From NCBI GenBank assembly GCA_001802945.1, contig MHAK01000018.1:10941-74940 (forward strand): a DNA stretch of 64,000 nucleotides, read 5' to 3'. Numbering within the stretch: position 1 is the first letter of the stretch; every line of letters begins with the position of its first letter. This stretch comes from Ignavibacteria bacterium RIFCSPLOWO2_12_FULL_56_21 (lineage in GTDB: Bacteria > Bacteroidota > Ignavibacteria > UBA10030). This document shows positions 3,306 to 31,331 of this stretch, piece by piece. The position numbers and the translations under genes are program-made. A model generated the notes under the pieces. The model was given only the letters and a program-made list of their open reading frames with translations, made no database searches and was not told the DNA's origin.

Positions 3306-3380
3306 GGGCGCTTAGCTCAGTTGGTTCAGAGCGTACGCCTCACACGCGTAAGGTCGCTGGTTCGACCCCAGCAGCGCCCA
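3306..3380 (+). tRNA. tRNA-Val (anticodon CAC)
   Basis: 75-nt cloverleaf. Acceptor GGGCGCT/AGCGCCC, D-arm GCTC..GAGC, anticodon stem TACGC/GCGTA with loop CTCACAC (anticodon CAC), T-arm GCTGG-TTCGACC-CCAGC, discriminator A; CCA not encoded. Confidence 0.85.
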
Positions 3381-3400
3381 CATGGAAGCAGGATACAAGC

Positions 3401-3573
3401 GAGGCGCTTAGTCCCGTCCCGTCCAAAGTTAGCGAGACGAAGTCGAAGCTAACTTTGAGGACGGGACGAGGATCCCGTTCACGTTCGCCGCAGGCGAACG
3501 GAACGGGACTCAGTTGGTTCAGAGCGTACGCCTCACACGCGTAAGGTCGCTGGTTCGACCCCAGCAGCGCCCA
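3401..3573 (+). pseudogene. Second tRNA-Val copy interrupted by a 97-bp insertion in the D-stem (probable pseudo-tRNA)
   Basis: GAGGCGCTTAG (3401-3411) matches the tRNA-Val 5' end with one acceptor mismatch. After a 97-bp insertion the sequence resumes, identical to tRNA-Val from CTCAGTTGG through AGCGCCCA (3509-3573). Confidence 0.6.
3412..3508. mobile_element. 97-bp double-hairpin insertion element (MITE/REP-like) with terminal inverted repeats TCCCGT(C/T)C
   Basis: Two near-perfect hairpins: tcccgtcccgtccaaagttagc...gctaactttgaggacgggacga and tcccgttcacgttcgcc-gcag-gcgaacggaacggga. The element begins TCCCGTCC and ends GAACGGGA, the reverse complement. Confidence 0.45.
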
Positions 3574-3599
3574 CTTGGCAAGTAAGAAGGTAAAAGGGT

Positions 3600-3800
3600 A
3601 AAGGAAGAAGTTGGTAGGTCGCTGGTTCCCCGCCCGCCATGATTCACCTTTTGGCGGGCCTACCCGCCATGTGCGTTGTCCAGCCTGCCCGCCGTTTGAA
3701 GTGCTCAATATTGGCAGGCGGGCATCCCGCCGTTTTTTGGCGGGGACGCCGTCGGCACCCACCAAAAAGGGTAAATGTAAGAAGTAGGAAGTGCGAGGGT
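3600..3800. repeat. Cluster of GC-rich CCCGCC...GGCGGG palindromic hairpins (REP-like) plus a degenerate tRNA-Val T-arm fragment
   Basis: Hairpins cccgccatgattcaccttttggcggg, cctgcccgcc..ggcaggcggg and atcccgccgttttttggcgggga; the fragment aggtcgctggttc at about 3612 matches the tRNA-Val T-arm. Confidence 0.45.
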
Positions 3801-3821
3801 TGTCAGTAGCCGCCTCAATGA

Positions 3822-3852
3822 AAACGCCATGAATCGTGGCGTTTTTCTTTTT
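3822..3852. terminator. Bidirectional rho-independent terminator
   Basis: Stem aacgcca/tggcgtt with loop tgaatcg, flanked by an A-run upstream and tttttcttttt downstream. It lies 35 nt past the stop of the minus-strand gene that ends at 3884. Confidence 0.5.
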
Positions 3853-3883
3853 ACCAGAACACAACTAAATCTCGTGCGAACGA

Positions 3884-6800
3884 TTATGTGACTGATGGCG
3901 GGACTTTTCCCCCTACCGGTAGCGGGCGTGCCGGGTCCGTGGTGGCGCCGATCTTTGCCGCGTAACTCGTCCGTTTCCGAATGTCTTCGTCCGTTATGAA
4001 GTGCACATCAAGGAATCGTTCGATGGCAATTCCCGTCCTCAGATAGTTCATATGACCAAGGCTGAGGCTCCAACCTTCAAGCCAATGGACCAGCTCTTTC
4101 TTCTGCTGGGAAGTGCCGGTAAAGTGGAGCAGGAGATTGATATCGCTCTTGGGGCCGGCTGTGGCATTCTTCGTACTCCCAAAGATGTATGCCGCCTTCA
4201 CTCCGAACCGCGAGGGATCCAGTCGCGCGGTCAGCTCATGAACGGTTCGAAGGCGCCATCGCCAGTGGGAATCATCCTCTTTCGGCGACGCCTCGATTTC
4301 GCTCGGCTGCGCCCGTTCCGTGACCGGTTCCGCTGAAGGCTCGCCCAGTAGTCCCACCGCTTCGTCCGTCTCTCCATTCATAAGAATGGATACAACAAGC
4401 CCGTTTGTGGAAGCCGGGACGTCAATTACCCGCACGATGCTCTCCAATTGAGCCATATCCGGAAGCAGGTCTTTCAAGACGTTGGGAGACTGCGTGAAGA
4501 ACGACTCATTGAACGCGGTTCCCGTCTCATCGGGATATAATGGAAGATACCGGATGTCGGCCTCCACGAGATCCTGGAAGAAATGGGTCCCGAACGACAA
4601 TTCCGGCTCGTATTCACGCTGTTTACGGGCGACCTCGATCAGCATAGCCGTGTTGCTGATGTCGGAATACGTTACACTCACGCCTAGTTTGATATCGCCG
4701 CGGCTGCCCCAGCGACCGGGACCGATCAAAATGAACTGGCGTTTGGGAAGTGACTGGTTGAGGCGACCTATCGCTTTTCCGACTGCGACGAGATCGGCAT
4801 GCCGCTTGATCTCGGCATACCGCTGTGGGTCGACGTACACGATGTGTGTAATGCTGGCGACAGTGCCGTTCGACACATACCGGTTCGCCGTAAAGAGAAC
4901 CTTGTGCCGCGGGATATCGCGGGGAATTATTGCAGGCTGTGATGTTTCACTATAGCTCTGAGGCCTGCATTGCAGCAAGTACAGATTCCGGCCGTCGTGC
5001 GCGAACTCGATGTCAACAGGCATTCTGAATTCCCGTTGTAACACCCCGAGAATGTTCTTCATCTGTTCGACAAACGGCGATCGGGAGATGAGCCCCTCAA
5101 AGGTCGCAACGGGAAAACCTGTTTCCGGGTCGGGTGTGGCCGAAGCGAAACGTTCGAACCGATTATCCCGCAGGATAGAAACGAGCTGATCGAGCAGGGG
5201 GTAGTCGTCCGAACACCGTTCGATCAGGTCGCGCAGATCGACCGTCTCGAACGTCTGGGACCGCAAGTTGATCACGTCCACTTTTCTCGGAGAGTACCTC
5301 ACCTGTTCGTCCAACGTGACGTTCACACGAAGGCCGGGCTGCCCGGGGGCGACCAGAACGGGATAATCGTCCGTCATTCTGTCGACGGCACGCGTTCCGA
5401 GTCCTGGAACCATCCGTAAGAGACCGTCCTCCCGTCTGATCCTCTTTGACCATCGGAACTCATTGTTGCTGAACGCAACGCCCGAGAATGCGGGCAGATA
5501 GTACTCTCCGACGCGAACGCCGATGACCTCCTGTATCAACACCCCCATCTCTTCATGCGAATCGAGAAGCCGCCGTTCAAGCCGATATTCAATCGGGTCC
5601 GGCCCGAACGTTGACGCATACACCTCTGTGATCGCATCCATCAATGCTACGAGGCGCTGCTGCTTCGTCCCCTGATTCGCAATGAAGAGACTCTTATATT
5701 TTCCGGCAAAGGACGTACCAAGTCGGTCTTCGAGGAGACTCGAACTCCGGACTATAAGCGGCGTGTCTCCAAAATCGTCGAGGGCAACGGATAACCCTGT
5801 GACGATCTCGGGCGGGAGGGGAGAGTTCTTGAACACGTGCACGATATACGGATATTCCTGCCGCACTTGTCCGATGTCCTCGTACTTCTGTTCGACGATC
5901 TCTTCCAGGTCGTTGTAGTTAATGAAATTGAGAATCCCGTCGGAAGTAAGATACCAGGTCTTGGGGGTCAGGATCGTCGACACATCTTCTCCATCTGCAC
6001 GGGACTTCTGAAGCATGTTGCTGGCGAGGAAAAGGCCGGCTCCTTTGCCGCCGAGTCGGCCGTGGCTTCCGGCCGGGTAGATCACCCGATGCAGGAGCTC
6101 GTAGAAATCGTTGACGTCAAGGTACTGCTTTGCGGTGTTGATGAATTGCGGATGGTCGCTAAGGAGTCTCCGAATCAGCGAGACACGGAAGGCCCGTTCT
6201 CGGGGTGAGGAAAGTTCTATTCCCTGGGGGGACAGGTGATGAAATCGCTCTATTGCGCTCGAGATCTCCGCAAGCGAGGAGCCGGCATTCTCCAGGATTT
6301 TCACGAGGAATCCCGAACGGTCCTCCTTGATCCAGTTCTGGATATTGTTCAGGATCTCCTTTTCACTCAGATGGTCGCTCGCGATCCGGAATATCTCTTC
6401 TGTGAGGCTGAGAAGGTCCGGTTTCTTCATCACGTGGACGGGACGATTGTCGTCCATCCCGGGGGTCGCAGAACCGCCGCTCATCGAAGGATTGAACGTT
6501 GCAAGGATGCGATCTGCGTCCTCGATTCCCGCCCAGGAGAGGTAGTTAAGCATCTTGCGCAGCAGGCGAGTCAAGAGCTTCGGGTCCGTCCGCCGAAGGA
6601 GGTCTATGATGACCTCCCACTCGTGATCTTGTGGATGCGTCAACTTCTGATTTTCGAAGACTCTCTTCAGCTTCTCGTGCAGAATTCGTCGTTCAAGACG
6701 GTCGGCGATTGTATTGATCAGTTTTCGTTCCTCCTTGAAGAACGGACCTTCGTCGGCGGCCGGACGCTCCTCGAGGTAACATACTGTGATCGACCCGACG

Positions 6801-7078
6801 ATTTCTCCTTGCACATCAAGGGCGGCGTGCAGTGCCCATGGCGACTCCCGGAATCCCGGTGATGCGCAAATAGCGCCGTCGATCTCAACTTGCGCAACGC
6901 ACACCTCAGGATACTGCCACCCGGCAGGAATGGAGCGCACAATACCGCTGGAGATCTCGTCGAGCGTGATCTCCGACTTGCTGAAGAGCTCTTCAACCTC
7001 ATAAAGACAATTCAGCTCCTTCGCCCGTTCCTTCAACGAGCGCAGCAGGTGCTCAACGGACTTGTCGTTCTCCTTCAT
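3884..7078 (-). CDS. Multidomain protein: N-terminal GAF domain + PEP-synthase/PPDK-type ATP-grasp (PPDK_N-like) domain + C-terminal pol-beta-type nucleotidyltransferase domain
   Basis: 1064 aa. GAF-like N-terminus; central GGKGAGL and VRSSSLLED...FAGKY motifs of the PEP/pyruvate-binding ATP-grasp domain; C-terminal GSTKNATAGPKSDINLLL minimal-nucleotidyltransferase motif. No recognisable PEP-utilisers phospho-His (GGxxSHAAI) motif. Confidence 0.65.
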   Translation of the reverse strand: MKENDKSVEHLLRSLKERAKELNCLYEVEELFSKSEITLDEISSGIVRSIPAGWQYPEVCVAQVEIDGAICASPGFRESPWALHAALDVQGEIVGSITVCYLEERPAADEGPFFKEERKLINTIADRLERRILHEKLKRVFENQKLTHPQDHEWEVIIDLLRRTDPKLLTRLLRKMLNYLSWAGIEDADRILATFNPSMSGGSATPGMDDNRPVHVMKKPDLLSLTEEIFRIASDHLSEKEILNNIQNWIKEDRSGFLVKILENAGSSLAEISSAIERFHHLSPQGIELSSPRERAFRVSLIRRLLSDHPQFINTAKQYLDVNDFYELLHRVIYPAGSHGRLGGKGAGLFLASNMLQKSRADGEDVSTILTPKTWYLTSDGILNFINYNDLEEIVEQKYEDIGQVRQEYPYIVHVFKNSPLPPEIVTGLSVALDDFGDTPLIVRSSSLLEDRLGTSFAGKYKSLFIANQGTKQQRLVALMDAITEVYASTFGPDPIEYRLERRLLDSHEEMGVLIQEVIGVRVGEYYLPAFSGVAFSNNEFRWSKRIRREDGLLRMVPGLGTRAVDRMTDDYPVLVAPGQPGLRVNVTLDEQVRYSPRKVDVINLRSQTFETVDLRDLIERCSDDYPLLDQLVSILRDNRFERFASATPDPETGFPVATFEGLISRSPFVEQMKNILGVLQREFRMPVDIEFAHDGRNLYLLQCRPQSYSETSQPAIIPRDIPRHKVLFTANRYVSNGTVASITHIVYVDPQRYAEIKRHADLVAVGKAIGRLNQSLPKRQFILIGPGRWGSRGDIKLGVSVTYSDISNTAMLIEVARKQREYEPELSFGTHFFQDLVEADIRYLPLYPDETGTAFNESFFTQSPNVLKDLLPDMAQLESIVRVIDVPASTNGLVVSILMNGETDEAVGLLGEPSAEPVTERAQPSEIEASPKEDDSHWRWRLRTVHELTARLDPSRFGVKAAYIFGSTKNATAGPKSDINLLLHFTGTSQQKKELVHWLEGWSLSLGHMNYLRTGIAIERFLDVHFITDEDIRKRTSYAAKIGATTDPARPLPVGGKVPPSVT

Positions 7079-7091
7079 ACGGTTGGAACTG

Positions 7092-8813
7092 TCACTCGTG
7101 TGAGGCTACCATGCCCGTCCCGGAACGGCCATCCACTTTGAGCGTAAGTGGGTTGGGAAGGGTAATGTGTCGCGTGAACTTCCTGTCATTGACGATTCGC
7201 TGGCTTTGAAGCCACTGCCAATCGATGCTGTCGGACCCTCCGGATCGTATGCAGAAATAGCTCACATGAAAGCTCGTCAGATTATGGAAGAAATGCGATC
7301 CCTGGCTAAAATCGATGTTCAGGTCTGGAATGGACGCCTCGACGATTGCTTGTGCCCCGGAGATCTGACCCCATGCGACAGGAATTCCGAGAAATGGGTC
7401 GGCGCTGCCCCATCGTCCGAACCCGATCAGAATGTACGGCCTGTGGGAGGATGTCAGCACATTGTTGAGGTCGGCCAATTCGTCTGCAATCGCACGTGTC
7501 GAGGTGGTGGCAAACATCTCGGGCTTTACATACACAATATCGGAGATCGTATCGACGATGCCATTGCCCAGCACTGTGCCGGATCGAATGCGAGTCCGAT
7601 CCGATCGAAGATCGGCCTCGGTCAGCGTGACTTCTGCCTGTGAAACGACCATGGGACGTGCCTGGAGAAATCCGAAGCGTGGCGGGTCGAAGGTCATCGC
7701 AAATTCGGCCTCGAGCGGCGCTCCCACGGACTCTGCACACACTGCCAGAATGTTCCGAACGAGTTGATTCACCGGCAACTCACGGCTGGCCAGCAACATT
7801 GAAAAATCGAGGACGCGAATGCCGACGCGACTCGTGCCGGGTGTGCGGCTGTCTGACGCTGGGTCATACGTCGAAGCTATATACTGCAGCCGGCCGTCCT
7901 CTTCGGCGTCCTGCAGCGTTCCTTCGACCAGATATTCCCGCTCGTTAATGGGGTCGTAAGCGGGCGGTTTCCCCATGTTTACCGCCCAAAATGTCGACTG
8001 CGTACTTTTGACCAGTTCGACCGATGAACGATATGGTGGAGCTATCGTTGGATAGGCGGGGGAGTATGTCCAACACTTGCCGCCATCCACAATCGTTTTC
8101 CCGAGTCCGAGCGCGAGACTGACAACTCCATCTTCGGGACGTGCGCGGCCCATCGCGTAAAAATTGTAGGAGCGCGCGACACCGGATACGTTGGGATAGA
8201 ACCTGTCGCCAACCGGACTTCCCACAACTTCCTGGAGAATGACTGCCATTTTCTCATCTTCCGTTCGATGACTGGTTGCGCGGACATAATCCCTCGCCGA
8301 ACGAAAGAATGTCGACGCATACACGAACTTGACCGCCTCGGAAAGTCGCCGAAACCGTTCGTCCACACTCGGCTGGTTGTTCGGGATCATTTTTGTTTCA
8401 TACACGCCGGCGAACGGTTCGCTGAGTGCATCTTCAAGCAGGCTCGAAGATCGCACTGCAAGGGGCGTATGCACCTGCTCAACCAGCGCCCGCAGGTCCC
8501 CCAGGATTTCGGCGGGAAGGGCTGCTTTCTGAAAAGCGTACGCCTTATATGAGTCGTCCTCGTCCGCATAAGCAATCTTGTGAAGCTCATTCCGCGTCAG
8601 GAACGCGTCGAAGACATCGGTACGGATGACCGTCAGGCTGGGAATGGAAACGTCGATCCCCGGGAACGATGTATTGTCCCATGACATCGCAAGAATGTCC
8701 TGGATGACCGCCAGTCCGTGCGCCTTTCCACCCAACGATCCGGTTCCGATGACCTTGAACCTCTGCGACGGGTCAAAGAAGGTCCGGTCGAACGGAGCAA
8801 GCAGGCTTTCCAA
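7092..8813 (-). CDS. PEP-synthase/PPDK N-terminal ATP-grasp (PPDK_N-like) domain protein, paralog of the downstream gene
   Basis: 573 aa. GGKAHGL and VRSSSLLED..FAGVYET motifs. Shares a C-terminal block (ILIGFGRWGS...SxGSHFF) with the 1064-aa neighbour. 14-nt gap to the next gene on the same strand. Confidence 0.65.
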   Translation of the reverse strand: MESLLAPFDRTFFDPSQRFKVIGTGSLGGKAHGLAVIQDILAMSWDNTSFPGIDVSIPSLTVIRTDVFDAFLTRNELHKIAYADEDDSYKAYAFQKAALPAEILGDLRALVEQVHTPLAVRSSSLLEDALSEPFAGVYETKMIPNNQPSVDERFRRLSEAVKFVYASTFFRSARDYVRATSHRTEDEKMAVILQEVVGSPVGDRFYPNVSGVARSYNFYAMGRARPEDGVVSLALGLGKTIVDGGKCWTYSPAYPTIAPPYRSSVELVKSTQSTFWAVNMGKPPAYDPINEREYLVEGTLQDAEEDGRLQYIASTYDPASDSRTPGTSRVGIRVLDFSMLLASRELPVNQLVRNILAVCAESVGAPLEAEFAMTFDPPRFGFLQARPMVVSQAEVTLTEADLRSDRTRIRSGTVLGNGIVDTISDIVYVKPEMFATTSTRAIADELADLNNVLTSSHRPYILIGFGRWGSADPFLGIPVAWGQISGAQAIVEASIPDLNIDFSQGSHFFHNLTSFHVSYFCIRSGGSDSIDWQWLQSQRIVNDRKFTRHITLPNPLTLKVDGRSGTGMVASHE

Positions 8814-8896: not shown

Positions 8897-10183
8897 TCAC
8901 ACCCAACCGCGATCCTTACATGCCTGTGCGACCCGGCTGATAGAGATAACGTAAGCGGCCTCACGCATGGTCAATTTTCGCTTGTTCGCAGTTTCCCGCA
9001 CGGCGTGATATGCAGAGGTCATGGTTGTGTCGAGCTTTCCGAATACTTCATCCTTGTTCCAGTAGTAGTTCATGTTGCTTTGCACCTGCTCAAAATAGCT
9101 GCATGTCACTCCGCCGGCGTTTGCGAGGAAATCTGGAATGACAAACATGTTTCTTGCACACAATGCGACGTCGGCTTCGGATGTCGTAGGTCCGTTCGCC
9201 GCTTCGGCGATGAGCTTGACGCCTTTGCCGATTCTGCCAACATTGTCTCTGGTGATCTGGTTCTCGAGCGCGGCAGGAATAAGCATGTCGACGTCTTGTT
9301 CAATCCAAGCGTCTTCTTGTAATACCTCATACCCGAGGTCTTGCGCCTTGCCGCGGTCAATTCCTCCGAACGGATCGGTGATTGTGCGGAGTTCTTCCAC
9401 GCTGACCCCGGATTTCTTGCGGAATGAGAAAGCGCATTTGGCTCCCTGGTCCCAACTGGAAACGCACACCACGGTTCCGCCGATCTGCTGCAAAAGCTCC
9501 ACTGCATACTGTGCAACATTCCCGAATCCCTGAACGCTCGCCGTGACGCCCTGCGGTTTCAGCTTCAAATCTTTCAGTGCCTCGCGCACAGTGAAAATAA
9601 CGCCGTACCCGGTCGCTTCTTTTCTGCCTTGCGATCCGCCTATGCTGAGAGGTTTTCCGGTGATGAAGCCGGGGTATTTGCCTCCATGGATCACTTCGTA
9701 TTCGTCCAGCATCCACAACATGTTCTGAGGATTTGTCATGACGTCTGGCGCAGGCACGTCGAGCACCGGACCTACGTTGCGGGAGACCTGTCGCACCCAG
9801 CCGCGACAGAGCTGCTCCACTTCACGCTGGCTCATATTGTGCGGGTCGCACACCACTCCGCCTTTGCTGCCCCCGAGTGGAATATCAACGACTGCGCATT
9901 TCCACGTCATCCAGACGGCAAGGGCGCGAACAGTGTCGATGGTCTCCATGGGATGGAATCGGATGCCCCCTTTTCCGGGTCCGCGCGCATCGTTATGCTG
10001 CACACGGAATCCGCGATAGATATGTACCGAGCCGTCATCCATTCGAACTGGAATGCTGAAATGGTATTCCCGCATGGGCCAACGGAGGAGATCTCGCGTC
10101 GCCTGACCAAGGTCTAACAGGTCGGCAACATGGTCGAATTGATGTTGAGCAGTTTCGAAAGGATTGTAACTCTGGGTGGACAT
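8897..10183 (-). CDS. gdhA: NAD(P)-specific glutamate dehydrogenase
   Basis: 428 aa. Glu/Leu/Phe/Val dehydrogenase signature region GGSKGGVVCDP with N-terminal dimerisation and C-terminal NAD(P)-binding domains. Confidence 0.9.
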   Translation of the reverse strand: MSTQSYNPFETAQHQFDHVADLLDLGQATRDLLRWPMREYHFSIPVRMDDGSVHIYRGFRVQHNDARGPGKGGIRFHPMETIDTVRALAVWMTWKCAVVDIPLGGSKGGVVCDPHNMSQREVEQLCRGWVRQVSRNVGPVLDVPAPDVMTNPQNMLWMLDEYEVIHGGKYPGFITGKPLSIGGSQGRKEATGYGVIFTVREALKDLKLKPQGVTASVQGFGNVAQYAVELLQQIGGTVVCVSSWDQGAKCAFSFRKKSGVSVEELRTITDPFGGIDRGKAQDLGYEVLQEDAWIEQDVDMLIPAALENQITRDNVGRIGKGVKLIAEAANGPTTSEADVALCARNMFVIPDFLANAGGVTCSYFEQVQSNMNYYWNKDEVFGKLDTTMTSAYHAVRETANKRKLTMREAAYVISISRVAQACKDRGWV

Positions 10184-10464
10184 GTACGTTCGCCTTTTGA
10201 ATTGATCGGATAAACTGCCGACAGGTTGTGAGAATAGAGATGCTGGAGGGGACAGTACAAAAAAACGTGCCGCAAGAGAGATGGCAAAAAAATGCCCAAA
10301 CTCATCCGCATTCTTTGTAGGATCGTGCGAGTATTCCCCATATGAGGGAATATTCTTAGAATCGAGACCCGCATTCTACGACCGGAGAACACGGATGCCA
10401 TTATGACGTTGTTGCATCAGCAACGCCCGCTTCGTATATTTAAGACAGTGTTCTTTCTCAGTTG

Positions 10465-10498
10465 TCCTTTAATACCTGTCCAGCGAGGCAGGAAAGGA
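10465..10498 (+). promoter_or_regulatory. Putative PyrR-binding loop in the pyr leader RNA
   Basis: tcctttaatacctgTCCAGcGAGGCaggAAAGGa resembles the conserved PyrR binding-loop consensus (UUUAA..UCCAGAGAGGCU..AAGG); the stem tccttt/aaagga encloses it. Located about 190 nt upstream of pyrR. Confidence 0.45.
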
Positions 10499-10631
10499 TG
10501 CCGGTAATGCAGGCGCGTGTGAAACCTCGGCCTGTATTCGCCTTGAATGATCTGACGACTTCCCGGATGAAGCTTGCCGCCCCTGACAGTGGCGCGCCTC
10601 CTCTCCAGTCAAGTCTCCAGCGGGTCATGAC

Positions 10632-10672
10632 GAAGCCTCCTTTCGAACCTCGAATGGAGGCTTTTCTCTTTC
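10632..10672 (+). terminator. Attenuator/terminator hairpin in the pyrR leader
   Basis: Stem gaagcctcc/ggaggctt followed by a T-rich tract ttttctctttct, immediately before the pyrR SD (GAGGAG) and start codon. Confidence 0.5.
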
Positions 10673-10685
10673 TGAGGAGTTGTCC

Positions 10686-11240
10686 ATGACCCAAACCCGC
10701 ATCATCGACGCAGCAGGCATGCGGCGCACCGTCAATCGACTAGCCCATGAGATCGTCGAAAAGAACAAGGGGGCGGAGGAAGTTGCCGTGGTCGGCATTC
10801 GCACACGGGGGGAATTCCTTGCGCGGCGCATCGCCAGAAAGCTCGAAGAAATCGAGCACCATCCCATTCAGGTGGGAATACTCGATATAACGCTGTATCG
10901 TGACGACCTTCGCGGCCGGCTTGATCAACCCCGTCTCCAAAGCACGGACATCCTCTTCGATGTCAACGGCAAGATCCTCGTCCTTGTCGATGACGTGCTG
11001 TTCACCGGAAGGACTGTCCGCTCGGCGCTTAACGCAATCATGGACCTGGGGAGGCCGAAGTCCATCCAGTTGCTCGTCCTCGTCGATAGGGGACATCGAG
11101 AACTTCCCATCAAGGCAGATTTTGCGGGGAAGAACGTCCCCACCTCGCAGCTTCAGGAGATCAAGGTGCTCATGGAAGAAGTTGACGGGGAAGATGGAGT
11201 TCTCCTCATCGAACGTTCGCCGTCGGAGGAGAGCCTATGA
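10686..11240 (+). CDS. pyrR: Bifunctional pyrimidine operon regulator / uracil phosphoribosyltransferase PyrR
   Basis: PRTase fold motif VLVDDVLFTGRTVRSAL and PyrR-like N-terminus. SD GAGGAG lies 6 nt upstream of the ATG at 10686; the ORF track starts at TTG 10680. Confidence 0.88.
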   Translation: MTQTRIIDAAGMRRTVNRLAHEIVEKNKGAEEVAVVGIRTRGEFLARRIARKLEEIEHHPIQVGILDITLYRDDLRGRLDQPRLQSTDILFDVNGKILVLVDDVLFTGRTVRSALNAIMDLGRPKSIQLLVLVDRGHRELPIKADFAGKNVPTSQLQEIKVLMEEVDGEDGVLLIERSPSEESL

Positions 11241-12154
11241 AACTCTCCGGAAGACACCTCCTTGGTCTCGAGAACATGTCCCGGGACGAACTGGACTTGA
11301 TCCTCGAAACTGCGGTCTCCTTCAAAGAGGTCCTCGAACGTCCCATCAAAAAGGTTCCGCCGCTGCAGGGGAAAACGATCGCAAACCTCTTCTTTGAAAG
11401 TTCTACGCGAACAAGGATATCGTTCGAACTGGCAGAGCGTCGGCTTTCCGCGGATGTCATTTCATTCAGTCAGTCAGGGAGCAGCGTGTCGAAAGGAGAA
11501 ACCCTGAAAGACACGGCGCGGAACATCGAAGCAATGAAGATCGACATGGTCGTTGTGCGGCACGCGTCGGCGGGGGCCGCACATTTCTTGAGCCGCGTTG
11601 TTGATGCGAACATCATCAACGCTGGGGACGGCGCACATGAACATCCGACTCAGGGCCTTCTCGATATGTTCACGTTGCGCGAAAAGCACGGGTCGCTTGA
11701 AAATCTTCGCGTGTGTGTCGTCGGAGATATTCTTCACAGCCGTGTCGCACGTTCGAATATATACGGCCTGCAGACGATGGGAGCCAAGGTATCCGTCTGC
11801 GGTCCTGCAACACTCATTCCCCGCGAGATTGAACGGATGGGCGTAGCAGTGTACCATCGCCTGGAAGACGTCATTCCGGAAGTGGATGCCCTGAACGTTC
11901 TTCGGGTTCAACTGGAACGACAAAAGAGGGGACTCTTTCCGTCGCTCAGAGAATATCATCGGTACTTCGGCGTTACGAAGGAGAAAGTGCAGAAGGCTTC
12001 GCGGCCGCTGACCATCATGCATCCCGGACCGATTAATCGCGACGTTGAGCTCTCGGCCGACCTGGCAGACAGTGAACATTCTGTCATCCTTCAACAGGTG
12101 ACAAACGGAGTTGCGGTGCGGATGGCAGTCTTGTATCTGTTGGGCACAGTGTAA
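11237..12154 (+). CDS. pyrB: Aspartate carbamoyltransferase catalytic subunit
   Basis: STRTR motif (FFESSTRTRISFE) and HPTQ/HPxQ carbamoyl-P binding; overlaps the pyrR stop (ATGA). Confidence 0.9.
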   Translation: MKLSGRHLLGLENMSRDELDLILETAVSFKEVLERPIKKVPPLQGKTIANLFFESSTRTRISFELAERRLSADVISFSQSGSSVSKGETLKDTARNIEAMKIDMVVVRHASAGAAHFLSRVVDANIINAGDGAHEHPTQGLLDMFTLREKHGSLENLRVCVVGDILHSRVARSNIYGLQTMGAKVSVCGPATLIPREIERMGVAVYHRLEDVIPEVDALNVLRVQLERQKRGLFPSLREYHRYFGVTKEKVQKASRPLTIMHPGPINRDVELSADLADSEHSVILQQVTNGVAVRMAVLYLLGTV

Positions 12155-12193
12155 CGAACGTCGTTAACTAATTTCATGAACAAAGGAACTTCC

Positions 12194-13483
12194 ATGAAGA
12201 TTCATATCAAGGGCGGCCGAATTGTCGACCCGGTCAGCGGCATGGACGAGGAGCGGGATATACTGGTGGTGAACGGGATCATCGAGCGGATCTCGTCGAG
12301 GCCGAGCGTCGACGGGAGCTACCAGACGGTTGATATGAAGGGTAATATTATCGTTCCCGGATTGCTCGATATGCACGTGCACCTTCGGGAACCGGGTTAC
12401 GAACACAAAGAGACCATTGAGACGGGTTGCGAATCAGCACGGGAGGGGGGATTCACGGCGGTTTGTTGTATGCCCAACACGAATCCCGCTATCGACGACG
12501 AATCCGTTGCGCGGTACGTTCGTCAGAAAGGACAGCAGGTGTGCGACGGCATTGTCGAGGTCTATCCGATTGCAGCAGCGACCAAGGGCCGATTGGGGGA
12601 GGAATTGTCGCCGATGGCAGAATTGGCAGGCGCGGGGGCTGTCGGATACTCCGACGACGGATCGCCGATCGCGAGCGCGGAGATCATGCGCAGGGTTCTT
12701 GAGTATTCATCGATGTTTGGCATACCCGTCATTCAGCACGCAGAAGAGCCGACCATGACCATGGGCGGTTGCATCAATGAAGGGTTCGTGTCGACAAAGA
12801 GCGGACTGCCGGGTATTCCGCCCGTCGCCGAAGAATTGATGGTGGCACGCGACCTCATTCTCCTGCGATACATACCGGCGGCGAAATATCATGTTGCCCA
12901 TATCAGCACGGCCTCAGCGATCGAGCTCGTGCGCAGGGCGAAAGCGGACGGTCTCCAGGCGACGGCTGAGGCGACGCCGCATCATTTTACTCTGACGGAC
13001 GATGTCACCGCTTCATTTGACACGAACACGAAGATGAACCCGCCACTCCGGACGGCCGACGACGTCGAAGCGGTCCGTCAGGCCCTAAAAGACGGCACTA
13101 TCGACGCAATTGCAACAGACCATGCTCCCCATACGATCGATGAAAAAGAAGTTGAATATATTGAGGCGCCGTTCGGCATTGTTGGATTGGAAACCGCGAT
13201 CGGTCTGACCATGACGGAGCTCGTTGAAACTGGCCTGCTTGCGCTTGACGAAGCGATCGCCAAGCTCTCCACGAATCCCCGGCGAATTGTCGGATTGCCG
13301 GCGATCAAGTTCACTCAGGGTGAACCAGCGAACATGACATTCATCGACCCTCGCGCAAAGTGGACGGTGGATGTGCAACGTTTCAAATCGAAATCCAAGA
13401 ATTCACCGTTTCACGGGCGAGTGCTCACGGGGAAGGCAATCGGCGTTCTGAATAACGGGAAAATGTACATTGCCGGAGTATGA
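12194..13483 (+). CDS. pyrC: Dihydroorotase (PyrC-type amidohydrolase)
   Basis: GLLDMHVHLREPG metal-binding motif and cyclic amidohydrolase family; positioned in the pyr operon after pyrB. Confidence 0.85.
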   Translation: MKIHIKGGRIVDPVSGMDEERDILVVNGIIERISSRPSVDGSYQTVDMKGNIIVPGLLDMHVHLREPGYEHKETIETGCESAREGGFTAVCCMPNTNPAIDDESVARYVRQKGQQVCDGIVEVYPIAAATKGRLGEELSPMAELAGAGAVGYSDDGSPIASAEIMRRVLEYSSMFGIPVIQHAEEPTMTMGGCINEGFVSTKSGLPGIPPVAEELMVARDLILLRYIPAAKYHVAHISTASAIELVRRAKADGLQATAEATPHHFTLTDDVTASFDTNTKMNPPLRTADDVEAVRQALKDGTIDAIATDHAPHTIDEKEVEYIEAPFGIVGLETAIGLTMTELVETGLLALDEAIAKLSTNPRRIVGLPAIKFTQGEPANMTFIDPRAKWTVDVQRFKSKSKNSPFHGRVLTGKAIGVLNNGKMYIAGV

Positions 13484-14436: not shown

Positions 14437-14907
14437 ATGAAGTTCGCGTTGTCCATCCTGATAATCGTGTGTGCTGTGGATACATCAGACGCTCAGATCC
14501 GCAGTCGGCGGACGGACAGGCAACAGCTTCTCCCATCGGATCTTCCTCTTCCAGAAGCGCAGCAACAAGAGGTCGGTGCAGTATTCGCTTCTGTGCAAAG
14601 AGGACTGGCAGCCTCTTCTGTGACGCCGTTCAGCGGACACTTTGCCGGCTCTGTTCATCTAGCGCTTCCGGCAAGCGACAGGGGACAATTCTCGCCAAAT
14701 CAGGCCTCGCAGATCCTCTCCAAGTTCTTTGCCGACCACCGAACCAAGTCGATGCGATTCGAGAATACCGCGACGACTGTGGCGGCGCCCTTCGCGTTTG
14801 GCACACTCGTGGTCGATGGACGCGGTCGACCTGATACACTCCGCGTGTACGTGGCGTTGACCCGTGTCGACACCCGGTGGTTGATCTCCCAACTTGCAGT
14901 CTATTGA
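14437..14907 (+). CDS. Hypothetical secreted protein
   Basis: Start at MKFALSILIIVCAV (signal peptide); the upstream part of the listed ORF overlaps the previous gene. No motifs recognised. Confidence 0.45.
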   Translation: MKFALSILIIVCAVDTSDAQIRSRRTDRQQLLPSDLPLPEAQQQEVGAVFASVQRGLAASSVTPFSGHFAGSVHLALPASDRGQFSPNQASQILSKFFADHRTKSMRFENTATTVAAPFAFGTLVVDGRGRPDTLRVYVALTRVDTRWLISQLAVY

Positions 14908-17900
14908 ACCTCGCACCTCCCCCACGATGACGAAGACCGATCGCAGACTCCGCTTGTCAGTGTGGGCGGCAGGTGTGTGCGGTCTCTCCGCCTTCCTTCT
15001 TTGGGCAGTCTTGCCGAATCTGAAAACTCAGGACAATGACCGGCCGGAAATGGCGGCGCAGATGCTGAAACGCGTCCGGGAAGCTTCCCTGGAGTATATT
15101 CGCTCATTGTACGCGAACGCCGAATCGGTTGCGGCCGACAGAGAGTTGTATCGGCTCGCGCTTTCGCGCGATCCGCTTGAAGTGGCCGGAGCATTCGATC
15201 GTTTGGCGGGATACCCACGGCCGCAGAGTACAACACTTGAGCTGACCGACGCCCGCGGTGAGATTCTCGCGTGGGCCGGCCGGCATTGGCGAGGTGCGAC
15301 GCCGTTTGAGGCGACCGGGGTGCAGCGCGACTCCGCGACCGTCATCGCTCCAACCGGTGCTTTCCTCGTGCTGTCTGTCTTTGCGACTCGCGACAGTGGA
15401 AAGTCGTTCGCGGTCGTTTCTACTCCGGTTCAGATCGACGAAGAAGCCGTTGCTCGGCTATTTCCAGTCCCGTCGCTGACCTCCATCCTCCACGAACTCG
15501 CGGGAACTCATGCCACATTCGAATCGATTGGAAATGTCAACCCCCTAAATCTGCAATCTCCGGTGGTTGGCTTGCGGGGCGAGATGATAGCATGTCTCAG
15601 TGGTCCGTCGATTGACGGACCGGCACAAGAGTTCCCTGGGTTGCCGGCAATCGGGCCGACAATCCTGCTTGTCCTCACCATCGTATTTGGCTGGACGGCC
15701 TTTTGGACCGTCACTGGTCGATTGCACGATGGAATGAGCTCGACGCTCCGAGTTGCCGCTGTTTGGGTGACACGGTATGCACTGCTCCTCTTGGGCATTC
15801 CCGGAAGATTCGACCTTGGACCCTTGGTAGATTCGGCCGCATACGGTTCGCCGTTTGGAAACGGCATAACAGGGACACCGCTTGACCTTTTGTTGAGTGC
15901 GATCGCACTCACACTTTCCCTCGCTTGGTTGGAGAAAACGATTGATGGACGCCTGGCTCACACTCGGATGCTCGCTTTTCGAACGCGCCGGTTACGGTGG
16001 TTGTCGTTGGCAGTCATGATTGTCGTCGTGTCTGCGCTGTTGATCGCGATTTCGCGTGCATTTGCGGCGTCAATCAAGAGCATCGTTGTGGATTCAACAC
16101 TGAAGCTGTATGATTCATTGAACATCGTGCCAGATGCCGGAGTTGTTGTACTTCTTACCGCATCGTTGTTACTCACGGCCTGCCTCATTATTTCCTGGAC
16201 GTCTCTCCTTCGATACATGGCGTCAGCTGCTTCCGGTGTAGCATCACATTTCGCATTTTCGACATGGGTGTATGTCGTCGCTGGAATTGCATTTGCTGTC
16301 GGTGTCTTTACGTTTGTCGATAGTTCTGGTGTCCTTCCGTTGACCCTCCCGGTTGCGGCGGTCGTTGTCGGCATTCTTCTGGCCGACCCGGAGCGTATTT
16401 CATCGGGTCGACAGACGACACTCTGGACGATCAGAGCAGTGGCGGTGATCGTGCTGGCACTTCCCGTTATCGACTCGATGGTCCGACAGAAATCTCGCGA
16501 TGGAATTCGCCACGAAGTCGAAGACAAGCTTCGTCCTGAAGATTCGTGGTTTTCCTTTCTCTTATCGACCGACCTCGCCGCGCTATCGCGTGATGCGGCA
16601 GAAACGGCACCGTTTTCGTCGGCTGCCAACGGTATCCGCGGAACACAGGCGTTTCGATTATGGGCTCGCACGACCATCAGCCGCCAGCCGTTGAATTCGG
16701 GTGTTGTTCTCTATGACGCTGCCGGTCGGGAAACCGACCGCTTTGTTGTCGGATTCAGCTCGTTCGAACAACAGATGGCTTTGAACGCAGTCTTCCAGGG
16801 CGACGAGGAAACGGCACAAACGTTGGATTCGCGTTCTCTGGGCAGTAAGTCTCATGTGTACGGCATGTGGGGGACATTTCGGAATTCTGAGAACGGGGTC
16901 CTTGGCAGTCTGGCATTGATCCTGTCTCCCGCTGAAGAGGAACCGCTCCTGCTTGCTGTGGCCGAGCGTTCAAGCACCGGGTTGACGCAAGCTCCAGAGG
17001 TAGAATATCTTGGAGGCGAGGCAGTGCGAAGCACGGACCCGTATGTGAGGTCCGGCTCCTTGCTCGGTGCGGACGTCTTTTCCGAACTTGAAAGCGTCCG
17101 TCGCAATTGGGTTTGGACTCGCTCGCACAATCGGGACGCCGACATTCTGTATGTACGCGATCCGGCAGTCCCGGGACGCATTCTCGCTGTGGCATTTGAG
17201 GATCAAGACATTCGTTGGCAGGTGTTCCACGCGGTACGGATCATAGCGGTGTATGCAATGATCGTGCTGCTGGTATTACTTGTGCGGTGGGTCGTCCGAT
17301 GGTTTTCGGGCACGCGCAACGTGATGAGTTTCCGCACCAGGCTTTTCCTTGCTTTCGGATCGATCGCAGTCATTCCTTTGATCCTGCTCGCCATTTACAA
17401 CCAGTCCTTATCGGAGGAACGTACGTCACGGTCTATCCGGACTGCGCTTCAGCGCGAACTCTCCCAGGTCGTTCAGCGGATGAATGCTTCCGTGCAAAGC
17501 GAAGAGGACATTGACCGCGGCGTGACGGACGATTTCTGCAGCTCGGTGGCTGCAGAATTGGATATCGAGTTTTCCTTTTTTCGCGGCGAACGGCTCCAGG
17601 CAAGCAGCAGGCCGGAACTGTATGCGTCGTCGTTGCTGGGAGACCGGGTGCCCGGGAAGGTGTTCGCTGCTGTGCAATTGTTGTCGGACGATCTTGTCGT
17701 TGAAACACAGAGGATCGGTTCGGTGACATACGCCGTCGGGTACGGTCCTTGGATCGTCAACGGGCGTCCGGCGGGAATTCTTTCGGTCCCGACACTGAAT
17801 CGACAGATGGAGATCGAGCAGGAGCTCGCCGAGCGAAACGCATACATACTTGTGGCATATGTCGTCGCTCTCGTTCTTATGCTCGTCGTCGGAGGTTATC

Positions 17901-18736
17901 TATCCGAGAGGATAGCACGTCCCTTGCGCGAACTCACCGCAACAACGCGGGAGCTTGGACAGGGAAGAGTCGTACCCGTCACCCGGTCGAGTCGGACGGA
18001 CGAGGTCGGTGAATTGATAAATGCCTTCGACGATATGTTGCAGCAGCTCGAGACCAGCCGCCAGCAACTTGCCCGTGCCGAGCGGGAACACGCCTGGAAG
18101 GAAATGGCAAAACAGGTTGCGCACGAGATCAAGAATCCGTTGACCCCGATGAAGTTGTCCGTCCAACATCTTCGCCAGGCGTTCAAGGACAAAGCACGTG
18201 ACCGGGAACGCATCCTCGCACAGGTCACGAAGATGCTTCTCGAACAGATCGACACGCTGTCGCGGATCGCAACTGAATTCGCACATTTCGCAAGATTACC
18301 GCAGCGAACGTTTGAACGCGTCGATGTTTGCAGAGTGATTCGTGAAGTCAAGGACCTGTTCACGGACAACCGTGGTATTGCAATTACTCTTCGCCTGCCG
18401 AAAGAAGCGGTGCTCGTGATCGCCGATGCAGATGAGCTTCAACGAGTCTTCATCAACCTCTTCCGCAACAGCATACAGGCGATGAGTGAACGGGGCTCAA
18501 TTGATGTATCAGCGTCGGTCGAACGGGGAATGCTGCATGTGGTTTTTGCAGATTCGGGTCCCGGTGTGCCGGAGCATCTCAGGTCGCGAATCTTTGAGCC
18601 GAGTTTCTCGACAAAGACCGAGGGGATGGGATTGGGACTCGCGATCGTCCGCCGCGTGATCGAAGATATGGGAGGCACCATCACGCTTCGTCCGATCGAC
18701 AAAGGGGCCGCGTTTGACATCCATATCCCTATATGA
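14894..18736 (+). CDS. Multi-pass membrane sensor histidine kinase
   Basis: 1280 aa with many predicted TM helices in the N-terminal 900 aa, a HAMP-like linker, H-box AHEIKNPLTPM, N-box, G1 (DSGPGV) and G2 (GMGLGLAIV). True start may be ATG 14927 (MTKTDRRL). Confidence 0.85.
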   Translation: MQSIEPRTSPTMTKTDRRLRLSVWAAGVCGLSAFLLWAVLPNLKTQDNDRPEMAAQMLKRVREASLEYIRSLYANAESVAADRELYRLALSRDPLEVAGAFDRLAGYPRPQSTTLELTDARGEILAWAGRHWRGATPFEATGVQRDSATVIAPTGAFLVLSVFATRDSGKSFAVVSTPVQIDEEAVARLFPVPSLTSILHELAGTHATFESIGNVNPLNLQSPVVGLRGEMIACLSGPSIDGPAQEFPGLPAIGPTILLVLTIVFGWTAFWTVTGRLHDGMSSTLRVAAVWVTRYALLLLGIPGRFDLGPLVDSAAYGSPFGNGITGTPLDLLLSAIALTLSLAWLEKTIDGRLAHTRMLAFRTRRLRWLSLAVMIVVVSALLIAISRAFAASIKSIVVDSTLKLYDSLNIVPDAGVVVLLTASLLLTACLIISWTSLLRYMASAASGVASHFAFSTWVYVVAGIAFAVGVFTFVDSSGVLPLTLPVAAVVVGILLADPERISSGRQTTLWTIRAVAVIVLALPVIDSMVRQKSRDGIRHEVEDKLRPEDSWFSFLLSTDLAALSRDAAETAPFSSAANGIRGTQAFRLWARTTISRQPLNSGVVLYDAAGRETDRFVVGFSSFEQQMALNAVFQGDEETAQTLDSRSLGSKSHVYGMWGTFRNSENGVLGSLALILSPAEEEPLLLAVAERSSTGLTQAPEVEYLGGEAVRSTDPYVRSGSLLGADVFSELESVRRNWVWTRSHNRDADILYVRDPAVPGRILAVAFEDQDIRWQVFHAVRIIAVYAMIVLLVLLVRWVVRWFSGTRNVMSFRTRLFLAFGSIAVIPLILLAIYNQSLSEERTSRSIRTALQRELSQVVQRMNASVQSEEDIDRGVTDDFCSSVAAELDIEFSFFRGERLQASSRPELYASSLLGDRVPGKVFAAVQLLSDDLVVETQRIGSVTYAVGYGPWIVNGRPAGILSVPTLNRQMEIEQELAERNAYILVAYVVALVLMLVVGGYLSERIARPLRELTATTRELGQGRVVPVTRSSRTDEVGELINAFDDMLQQLETSRQQLARAEREHAWKEMAKQVAHEIKNPLTPMKLSVQHLRQAFKDKARDRERILAQVTKMLLEQIDTLSRIATEFAHFARLPQRTFERVDVCRVIREVKDLFTDNRGIAITLRLPKEAVLVIADADELQRVFINLFRNSIQAMSERGSIDVSASVERGMLHVVFADSGPGVPEHLRSRIFEPSFSTKTEGMGLGLAIVRRVIEDMGGTITLRPIDKGAAFDIHIPI

Positions 18737-30974: not shown

Positions 30975-31331
30975 ATGATTTTTTCGGTTCTTCCAAGCGA
31001 ACTGGACCTCACGATGATCCTCATTCTCTGGCGGTTCACTGCGAAATCGGATTCCGTCGACACTTTTGCTCAAATGTACGACAGCTCCGGCCCGTGGGTT
31101 GACATTTTCCGTCGTTACCATGGTTATCTTGGTACGGAGCTCCACCGATCGGTCGACGATGTGCGGGTGTTCATGACGATCGACAGATGGGAAGACAGAT
31201 GGTCGTATGAGACGTTTCTGGCAAACCATGACCCCGAGTATACGGCGCTCGACAAACGATGCCAGGAGCTGACGGAATCCGAAGATTTTGTCGGGCTCTA
31301 TGAAAATGTAACCGCCGTACCGGGCGAATGA
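30975..31331 (+). CDS. Small ABM-like (antibiotic biosynthesis monooxygenase / dimeric alpha+beta barrel) protein
   Basis: About 105-118 aa with ferredoxin-like ABM pattern (…LILWRF…FAQMY…FMTIDRWEDRWSYETF); weak assignment. Confidence 0.4.
   Translation: MIFSVLPSELDLTMILILWRFTAKSDSVDTFAQMYDSSGPWVDIFRRYHGYLGTELHRSVDDVRVFMTIDRWEDRWSYETFLANHDPEYTALDKRCQELTESEDFVGLYENVTAVPGE

Follow-up and report, generated by a model that had tools for sequence, protein, structure and literature searches.

In the 64,000-nucleotide window analysed here, which comes from Ignavibacteria bacterium RIFCSPLOWO2_12_FULL_56_21 (contig MHAK01000018.1, positions 10,941 to 74,940), three minus-strand genes form one operon: gdh, which encodes a glutamate dehydrogenase (GDH), and two genes for related proteins with a PPDK_N ATP-grasp domain, referred to below as SMALL and BIG (Table 1). 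The same neighbourhood recurs across many phyla and suggests a module dedicated to glutamate dehydrogenase. A terminator-like hairpin and tRNA genes come after BIG, and a pyr operon runs divergently upstream of gdh; the transcription unit is therefore gdh-SMALL-BIG. SMALL and BIG are 13 nucleotides apart in the window, and in other genomes they often overlap, with overlapping stop and start codons. The gdh product carries the Pfam domains ELFV_dehydrog_N (E=1e-53) and ELFV_dehydrog (E=1e-67), scores 459 bits against NCBIfam GdhA_Arch and is nearest in the PDB to the Thermococcus GDH 1euz (E=6e-120), its best PDB matches all being named glutamate dehydrogenase. BIG is 100% identical to a database protein (P0001); its best 120 homologs share 56-69% identity over at least 98% of the length, and the homologs of SMALL share 56-70% identity across phyla. 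The original prediction, which was concerned with SMALL and BIG, placed both genes at their correct coordinates; the operon context with GDH, which we consider decisive, was absent from it.

Table 1. Features of the gdh-SMALL-BIG operon and of its flanks (positions in the window).
Feature	Position	Strand	Remarks
gdh	8897..10183	-	Hexameric glutamate dehydrogenase, 428 residues; first gene of the operon
SMALL	7092..8813	-	573 residues, TTG start; PPDK_N and C-block
SMALL ATP-grasp domain (PPDK_N)	7629..8738	-	Residues 26-395; Pfam E=1.8e-33
SMALL C-block	7095..7628	-	Residues 396-573; invariant His507, codon 7293-7295
BIG	3884..7078	-	1064 residues; GAF-like region, helical region, PPDK_N, C-block, nucleotidyltransferase
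BIG GAF-like sensor fold (moderate support)	6638..7078	-	Residues 1-147; AlphaFold model and Foldseek
BIG helical region	6071..6637	-	Residues 148-336; conserved, all-helical in a lower-confidence model
BIG ATP-grasp domain (PPDK_N)	4919..6058	-	Residues 341-720; Pfam E=5.8e-58
BIG C-block	4343..4918	-	Residues 721-912 (about 190 residues); invariant His832, codon 4583-4585
BIG minimal Pol-beta-type nucleotidyltransferase (by sequence)	3887..4264	-	Residues 939-1064; G967-S968 ... D979-I-N981
Likely operon terminator	3820..3846		12-bp hairpin between A and T runs, 37 nucleotides past the BIG stop codon
Intergenic region 5' of gdh, presumed operon promoter	10184..10461	-	No supported open reading frame inside
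PyrR-binding-site-like leader RNA	10462-10669	+	46.3 bits, below the gathering score of 54
pyrR	10680-11240	+	Phosphoribosyltransferase, 186 residues; leads pyrB and a dihydroorotase-like gene, operon span 10680-13483

The distribution and neighbourhood analysis called for in the original prediction shows a linkage to GDH. Relatives of BIG are present in at least 588 species-level genomes. Eighty loci were retrieved, all of them from metagenome-assembled genomes (MAGs), and 73 included enough upstream DNA for GDH to be scored. The 73 represent about 14 phyla; the lineages among the 80 include Ignavibacteria, Calditrichota, Acidobacteriota, Bacteroidota, Chloroflexota, Planctomycetota, Zixibacteria, Myxococcota, Eisenbacteria, Fermentibacteria, Delongbacteria, Marinimicrobia and Spirochaetota. 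GDH adjoins BIG in 71 of the 73 loci, upstream and co-directional in 68 and divergent in three; two loci are without it. The order gdh-SMALL-BIG is found in 57/73 and the order gdh-BIG in 11/73. In 41 of 68 loci the next gene after BIG encodes a metallophosphoesterase of about 287 residues, which is convergent in 38, usually with 0-20 nucleotides between the convergent stop codons (for example L010:13183-14040 on the minus strand; the loci concerned lie between L005 and L084); it has no relatives in the PDB or NCBIfam, and none that is characterised. The remaining flanking genes vary: after BIG and SMALL, GDH and the phosphoesterase, the next commonest neighbour family is present in at most 10 loci, and these neighbourhoods yielded no further conserved gene that could be the target. 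The remainder of the 64-kb window likewise holds no obvious nitrogen-regulation genes. When cultured hosts were sought with an Acidobacteriaceae homolog as the query, every match with a named source was a MAG.

The relationship between the two proteins was established by profile-profile comparison of an alignment of 38 BIG homologs (A1) with one of 32 SMALL homologs (A2), which gave a probability of 100% (E=1e-48) and aligned residues 11-526 of SMALL to residues 324-851 of BIG; the core of BIG and SMALL is therefore an ATP-grasp domain followed by a C-terminal block, termed the C-block. The presence of PPDK_N in both genes, as originally proposed, was borne out by Pfam (Table 1), and the motifs quoted for it (GGKGAGL and GGKAHGL, VRSSSLLED..FAG.Y) are all present. 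Aligned with Escherichia coli PpsA, both proteins keep GGK, VRSS..ED..FAG, the VQ.MV hinge, GLG and the end motif D/E-x-E-F-A...Q-x-R-P (also written D.E[FW]A...Q.RP). Five residues of the domain are invariant in the BIG family (K345, R444, E691, Q703 and R705) and five in the SMALL family (K30, R121, E370, Q384 and R386). Judged by these residues, the ATP-grasp sites are intact and both proteins look catalytically competent. The other domains of the classical enzymes are lacking: neither PEP-utilizers (PF00391, the swivel domain with its GG.TSH motif) nor PEP-utilizers_C (PF02896, the TIM barrel) was matched in Pfam searches by BIG or SMALL as whole proteins, or by isolated fragments of them at E<=10. 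NCBIfam models of phosphoenolpyruvate (PEP) synthase, PigC/RedH and rifampin phosphotransferase (RPH) align to no more than a portion of the ATP-grasp domain and score 15-58 bits (cut-offs 598-1350); the PEP-synthase models reach 20-58 bits (cut-offs 598-1063), and RIF_Ptrans_rph (NF041857) reaches 32.5 bits with BIG and 14.8 with SMALL (cut-off 999). RPH chains in the PDB match residues 342-522 of BIG only (E about 1e-4 to 8e-4). The likeness to rifampin phosphotransferase and related small-molecule kinases drawn in the original prediction is unsupported. The description of SMALL as a truncated paralog of BIG does not hold either, as SMALL is about 41% identical to the core of the receiver-fused relatives described below and about 30% identical to BIG.

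The most distinctive part of the core is the C-block. Its motifs had been noted from the start and are present as quoted (ILIGPGRWGS or ILIGFGRWGS, with GTHFF or GSHFF). In a joint alignment of both families (A3), 18 columns are invariant over the two paralogs, the signature being L-x-G-x-G-R-W-G-S-x(1,2)-D ... G-x-x-V ... E ... S-x-G-[TS]-H-F-F ... Y. Just one histidine is invariant (His832 of BIG, His507 of SMALL); it follows G-[ST] and is placed beside the N-terminus of a predicted helix. The C-block starts exactly where the swivel domain of PpsA starts in the alignment, and its predicted order of strands and helices resembles that of a swivel domain; a diverged-swivel identity was therefore put to the test. 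The C-block profile did not match PpsA or PtsI in HMMER; hhalign against seven genuine swivel domains (from PpsA, three PEP synthases, the C-terminal domain of pyruvate kinase, RPH and PtsI) gave a probability of 0.2%; and no swivel domain was among the top 50 Foldseek matches in the PDB. On these results, together with the Pfam searches, the reading of the C-block as a diverged swivel phospho-histidine domain was rejected, in agreement with the earlier statement that neither protein has the phospho-histidine motif of the PEP-utilising enzymes. The AlphaFold model of the BIG C-block is an alpha/beta structure (predicted local distance difference test, pLDDT, 89.2; predicted template modelling score, pTM, 0.86) for which Foldseek found nothing significant in the PDB (best E=0.045, template modelling (TM) score at most 0.32), the weak top matches being Rossmann-like nucleotide binders (USP domain, PPAT, WrbA). 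A profile search of PDB sequences with A3 gave nothing meaningful, and no Pfam, NCBIfam or PDB family was matched. Since the swivel tests and the fold and sequence searches were all negative, the C-block is an undescribed domain. A search of 1.84 billion representative proteins with its profile returned 2401 clusters at 50% identity, 1733 of them at E<=1e-10, and PPDK_N precedes the C-block in 10/10 further members scanned with Pfam.

BIG differs from SMALL by its two ends. Its N-terminus contains seven invariant residues (C24, P51, G53, W54, Q55, C60 and W81) and was modelled with AlphaFold as part of residues 1-336 (model m7f45a29f6174), with a pLDDT of about 80-90 over residues 10-100 and the order H-H-E-E-E-E-H, in which only four strands are clear. 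The top Foldseek matches of this model in the PDB are almost all GAF domains (Nlh1 4g3k, 3p01, NifA 8jrc and 3cit, as well as phytochromes), with the PtsP GAF domain 3ci6 lower in the list; the probability is about 1.0 for the best, but E values are 0.03-0.5 and TM scores by target 0.46-0.55. The GAF domain of the original prediction reappears only as a GAF-like fold in the model and escapes detection by hidden Markov models: Pfam GAF, GAF_2 and GAF_3 did not match BIG as a whole or its residues 1-148 at E<=10, and a profile search of PDB sequences with the N-terminal region (A4) gave nothing meaningful. Taken together, a GAF-like sensor fold has moderate support from the predicted structure. 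The helical region that follows contains many invariant residues and has no Pfam or PDB match.

At the other end, most BIG homologs carry a precomputed match to PF01909 or PF18765, several of them marked weak or faint, and a profile of the tail retrieves mainly nucleotidyltransferases (NTases) from the PDB (E=0.0016-0.9), namely URT1, 1wot, 2rff, kanamycin NTase, ANT(3'')(9) and MNT, all aligned over GS-x10-DxD. The motif FGS-x(10)-DID is maintained as SDID in 37/37 aligned homologs, and H1026 and D1032 are invariant among 38 aligned sequences. At the family level the tail is, on these sequence criteria, a minimal Pol-beta-type NTase. The NTase motif originally quoted, GSTKNATAGPKSDINLLL, is present, and the assignment holds for the family; it is weaker for this copy, which alone reads SDIN and stays below the Pfam thresholds (Polbeta 22.4 bits against 26.9, NTP_transf_2 20.1 against 21, MTPAP also sub-threshold). 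The only NTase model among the NCBIfam matches is MntA (E=1e-3, 19 bits against a cut-off of 60), and PADLOC gave weak PDC-S09 matches to the NTase segment (E=8e-6 to 3e-3) over about 40 residues.

The combination of PPDK_N and C-block extends to a wider family. Its architectures comprise SMALL (about 580 residues), BIG (about 1060), BIG without the NTase (about 920), forms of about 770 and 860 residues, forms fused to a receiver domain (Response_reg) with or without DUF5752 (about 815-1077) and SMALL-BIG fusions (about 1520-1650), none of which is covered by an NCBIfam model. One fusion, P0114, was verified by BLAST, and P0241-P0243 carry two C-blocks each. Many loci contain a second GDH, an NADP-GDH of the E. 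coli GdhA type (743 bits against a cut-off of 536; PDB 4fcc, E=3e-172), the two classes being about 31% identical to each other. This second GDH adjoins a receiver/DUF5752-fused PPDK_N and C-block protein (about 1000-1077 residues) in at least seven loci and the 860-residue form in two, often less than 10 kb from the gdh-SMALL-BIG module. Loci with one or the other arrangement are L027 (14050-18915 on the minus strand), L010 (14229-18314 on the plus strand), L016, L018, L029, L055, L066 and L072. Two GDH classes that carry out the same reaction have one dedicated paralog each; protein-specific recognition is therefore favoured, and the arrangement argues against a small-molecule chemistry shared by the two. 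A possible precedent was considered in Bacteroides thetaiotaomicron, in which the activity of GdhA, according to what Baggio and Morrison reportedly described in 1996, needs one or more trans-acting genes downstream of gdhA. We take that gdhA to be BT1970. BT1970 is flanked by genes for a malic enzyme (BT1969; PMC8865466) and a catalase (BT1971; PMC12596196). Involvement of the system described here is unsupported, and the link was dropped.

We propose that SMALL and BIG constitute a signal-responsive, ATP-dependent modifier of GDH or of a GDH-bound partner; given the strength of the linkage, we would place this at slightly under an even chance. A signal-responsive modification system, the broad notion put forward in the original prediction, fits the evidence, as relatives carry receiver domains. 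Fusions to sensors, GAF-like on BIG and receivers on its relatives, are typical of signalling output modules. A fuller version can be formulated, in which SMALL, BIG and the receiver-fused relatives are ATP-dependent protein modifiers that switch GDHs on or off according to nitrogen or carbon status, with the C-block as a new phospho-carrier (His832/His507) and the phosphoesterase as an eraser, a GDH counterpart of GlnE and GlnD; this version is tentative, and the balance tilts against it. In the mechanism proposed for the modifier itself, SMALL and BIG would act together as a complex, and the GAF-like N-terminus of BIG would sense a metabolite indicative of nitrogen or carbon status, with 2-oxoglutarate and glutamine the obvious candidates. 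The ATP-grasp domains would load a phosphoryl group from ATP, probably onto the C-block histidine, and transfer of this group to GDH itself, or to a controlling partner, would switch GDH activity. The NTase of BIG could add a second layer, for instance by AMPylating GDH, SMALL or BIG, and the modification could proceed through the C-block histidine, the NTase or both. The metallophosphoesterase often encoded downstream would remove the modification.

Several observations weigh against this proposal. It is gene linkage that points to GDH as the target, and such linkage would also be expected of a metabolic partner. At least one of the 11 loci scored as being without SMALL, L014, does have SMALL about 780 nucleotides upstream, and the metallophosphoesterase is not present in the window. 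Because the C-block has no detectable kinship to swivel domains by HMMER, hhalign or Foldseek, a phospho-relay role of His832 is a guess from its position and conservation, and the Rossmann-like character of the weak structural matches could equally mean a ligand-binding domain. As for the NTase, the substitution D981N in this copy (codon AAT, 4136-4138 on the minus strand, one transition from GAT) replaces the second metal-binding aspartate; an inactive NTase in this organism is one possibility, a single-base assembly error another. The candidate for the third carboxylate, an aspartate in LLDVH, is replaced by serine or asparagine in about 7/38 homologs, and many Acidobacterial homologs are without a precomputed NTase match. 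In view of D981N, of these losses of the third acid and of the Acidobacterial homologs, the catalytic activity of the NTase may be dispensable. A literature search on the PPDK_N and C-block family and its link to GDH found nothing relevant.

The main rival is that SMALL and BIG are metabolic partners of GDH, namely small-molecule dikinases or ligases that act on its substrate or product (glutamate, 2-oxoglutarate or an intermediate) in a short pathway. Operon linkage to an enzyme is classic evidence of a pathway, and the weak matches of the C-block are to small-molecule or nucleotide binders. PEP synthase, pyruvate, phosphate dikinase (PPDK), rifampin phosphotransferase and PigC/RedH, the characterised PPDK_N relatives and the weak NCBIfam neighbours of the present proteins, all act on small molecules. 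Such a pathway does not account readily for two GDH classes with the same reaction and a separate paralog for each; receiver and GAF-like fusions would be unusual for pathway enzymes, the Pfam and NCBIfam scans revealed nothing recognisable as a substrate-binding domain, be it a TIM barrel or a rifampin-binding domain, and the NTase tail and phosphoesterase suit a cycle of writing and erasing better. We therefore regard a metabolic partnership as unlikely, albeit far from negligible, and favour a write/erase system acting on GDH over a pathway enzyme, because of the paralog for each GDH class, the sensor fusions and the pairing of NTase and phosphoesterase.

It can also be envisaged that SMALL and BIG are signalling enzymes with another target, which sense nitrogen or carbon status and modify a different protein or make a nucleotide signal, GDH being merely co-expressed. 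Pol-beta-type NTases include signal-nucleotide synthases, sensor domains are present, and the C-block weakly resembles nucleotide-binding folds, all of which would suit such a role. However, GDH adjoins BIG in 71/73 loci, and the adjacency is recreated with a distantly related GDH class of about 31% identity; co-expression alone is therefore hard to credit. As the neighbourhoods also offer no other conserved candidate target, we consider this explanation improbable.

The remaining alternatives are effectively excluded. A xenobiotic kinase of the rifampin-phosphotransferase kind, or else a toxin-antitoxin or defence element of MNT type, would draw on weak matches to RIF_Ptrans_rph (32.5 bits), PigC, MntA and the PADLOC model PDC-S09, but the scores are far under the cut-offs (999, 1300 and 60), swivel domain, rifampin-binding domain and HEPN partner are all missing, and the context is conserved across phyla beside a core metabolic gene; this reading retains only a very slight probability. 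Slighter still is that of a canonical PEP synthase or PPDK split over two genes: the PPDK_N domain is genuine and P0001 and several homologs are annotated 'pyruvate, phosphate dikinase', but neither protein has PEP-utilizers or PEP-utilizers_C and hence a swivel domain or TIM barrel, the NCBIfam models score 20-58 bits against 598-1063, hhalign gives the C-block a probability of 0.2% against swivel domains, and BIG and SMALL carry the same half of the enzyme instead of complementary halves.

BIG and SMALL belong to the PPDK_N ATP-grasp superfamily, and what is new is the C-block domain and the association with GDH. With PEP synthase (PpsA) and PPDK they share the ATP-grasp domain with all nucleotide-binding motifs aligned; in contrast to these enzymes, they have the C-block in place of the swivel domain and TIM barrel, BIG has an additional sensor and NTase, and the genes are linked to GDH. 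RPH and PigC/RedH, the best weak neighbours in NCBIfam and the PDB, also use PPDK_N outside PEP metabolism with a small catalytic domain at the C-terminal side. They keep, however, the canonical swivel histidine (RPH 5fbs aligns to the swivel domain of PpsA with E=7e-17) and a small-molecule-binding domain, and SMALL and BIG have neither.

The closest functional parallels lie in nitrogen control and in the regulation of central dehydrogenases. GlnE, the glutamine synthetase adenylyltransferase, and GlnD, the PII uridylyltransferase, are NTases of the Pol-beta superfamily that are coupled to metabolites and reversibly modify nitrogen assimilation. The similarity is one of function only, an NTase coupled to metabolite sensing; here the presumed target is GDH and not glutamine synthetase or PII, ATP-grasp domains would be the main catalysts, and the NTase is a minimal one of about 125 residues, possibly inactive owing to D981N. 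No GlnE/GlnD-type family turned up in the general Pfam and NCBIfam scans, which included no dedicated membership test. PtsP (Enzyme I-Ntr) has a GAF domain N-terminal to a phosphotransfer enzyme of the PEP-synthase superfamily, and its structure 3ci6 is among the Foldseek matches of BIG; the GAF domains of PtsP and NifA are reported to sense glutamine and 2-oxoglutarate. Unlike BIG, PtsP is driven by PEP, has the canonical swivel histidine and TIM barrel and no ATP-grasp domain, and delivers its phosphoryl group to NPr. AceK, the isocitrate dehydrogenase kinase/phosphatase, is encoded with its target and provides a functional analogy for a dedicated modifier encoded with a central metabolic dehydrogenase; it has an unrelated fold and, as one bifunctional protein, acts by phosphorylating a serine. 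The type VII toxin-antitoxin protein MntA, which AMPylates a protein, has the minimal NTase core with GS-x(10)-DxD, and MNT structures are among the PDB profile matches. The BIG NTase differs in its fusion to an enzyme of about 940 residues and in its score (19 bits against a cut-off of 60), and no HEPN gene is present at the locus.

Glutamate dehydrogenase stands at the junction of carbon and nitrogen metabolism, and, to our knowledge, its post-translational control in bacteria is little known beyond a few model organisms. The PPDK_N and C-block family, with about 2400 clusters at 50% identity, is uncharacterised and encoded beside two GDH classes in mostly uncultured lineages that matter in sediments, soils and anaerobic digesters (Acidobacteriota, Ignavibacteria, Calditrichota, Zixibacteria, Aminicenantes, Anaerolineae and Bacteroidales). 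If modification of GDH by SMALL and BIG were confirmed, it would constitute a new regulatory layer on nitrogen flux in these communities, and a new domain would join the catalytic partners of the PPDK-type ATP-grasp fold. For this family the databases use the misleading names 'pyruvate, phosphate dikinase' and 'phosphoenolpyruvate synthase', and a widespread misannotation that skews metabolic reconstructions of MAGs could in that case be corrected.

At the borders of the operon, the presumed promoter region 5' of gdh is divergent from the pyrR leader, the pyrR-pyrB-pyrC operon running the opposite way, and no promoter was identified in this interval. Downstream of BIG, beyond the hairpin, a tRNA-Val(CAC) gene (3306-3381, plus strand) is followed about 125 nucleotides further on by a second tRNA-like element (3505-3573, plus strand), with a 3' half of about 55 nucleotides common to both. 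The second element scores 35.4 bits in Rfam, above the gathering threshold, and is not called by ARAGORN; a diverged tRNA, a duplicated one or a pseudogene would all fit. A 174-residue open reading frame at 3340-3864 on the minus strand was rejected as spurious because it runs antisense across the tRNA genes and overlaps the terminator hairpin. Elsewhere in the window, a 1280-residue histidine kinase (14894-18736, plus strand) combines a C-terminal HAMP-HisKA-HATPase_c arrangement with about 1000 N-terminal residues that have no Pfam match. A 614-residue protein (31328-33172, plus strand) is a bacterial homolog of angiotensin-converting enzyme, with a 727-bit match to the family of that enzyme, Peptidase_M2, along its entire length.

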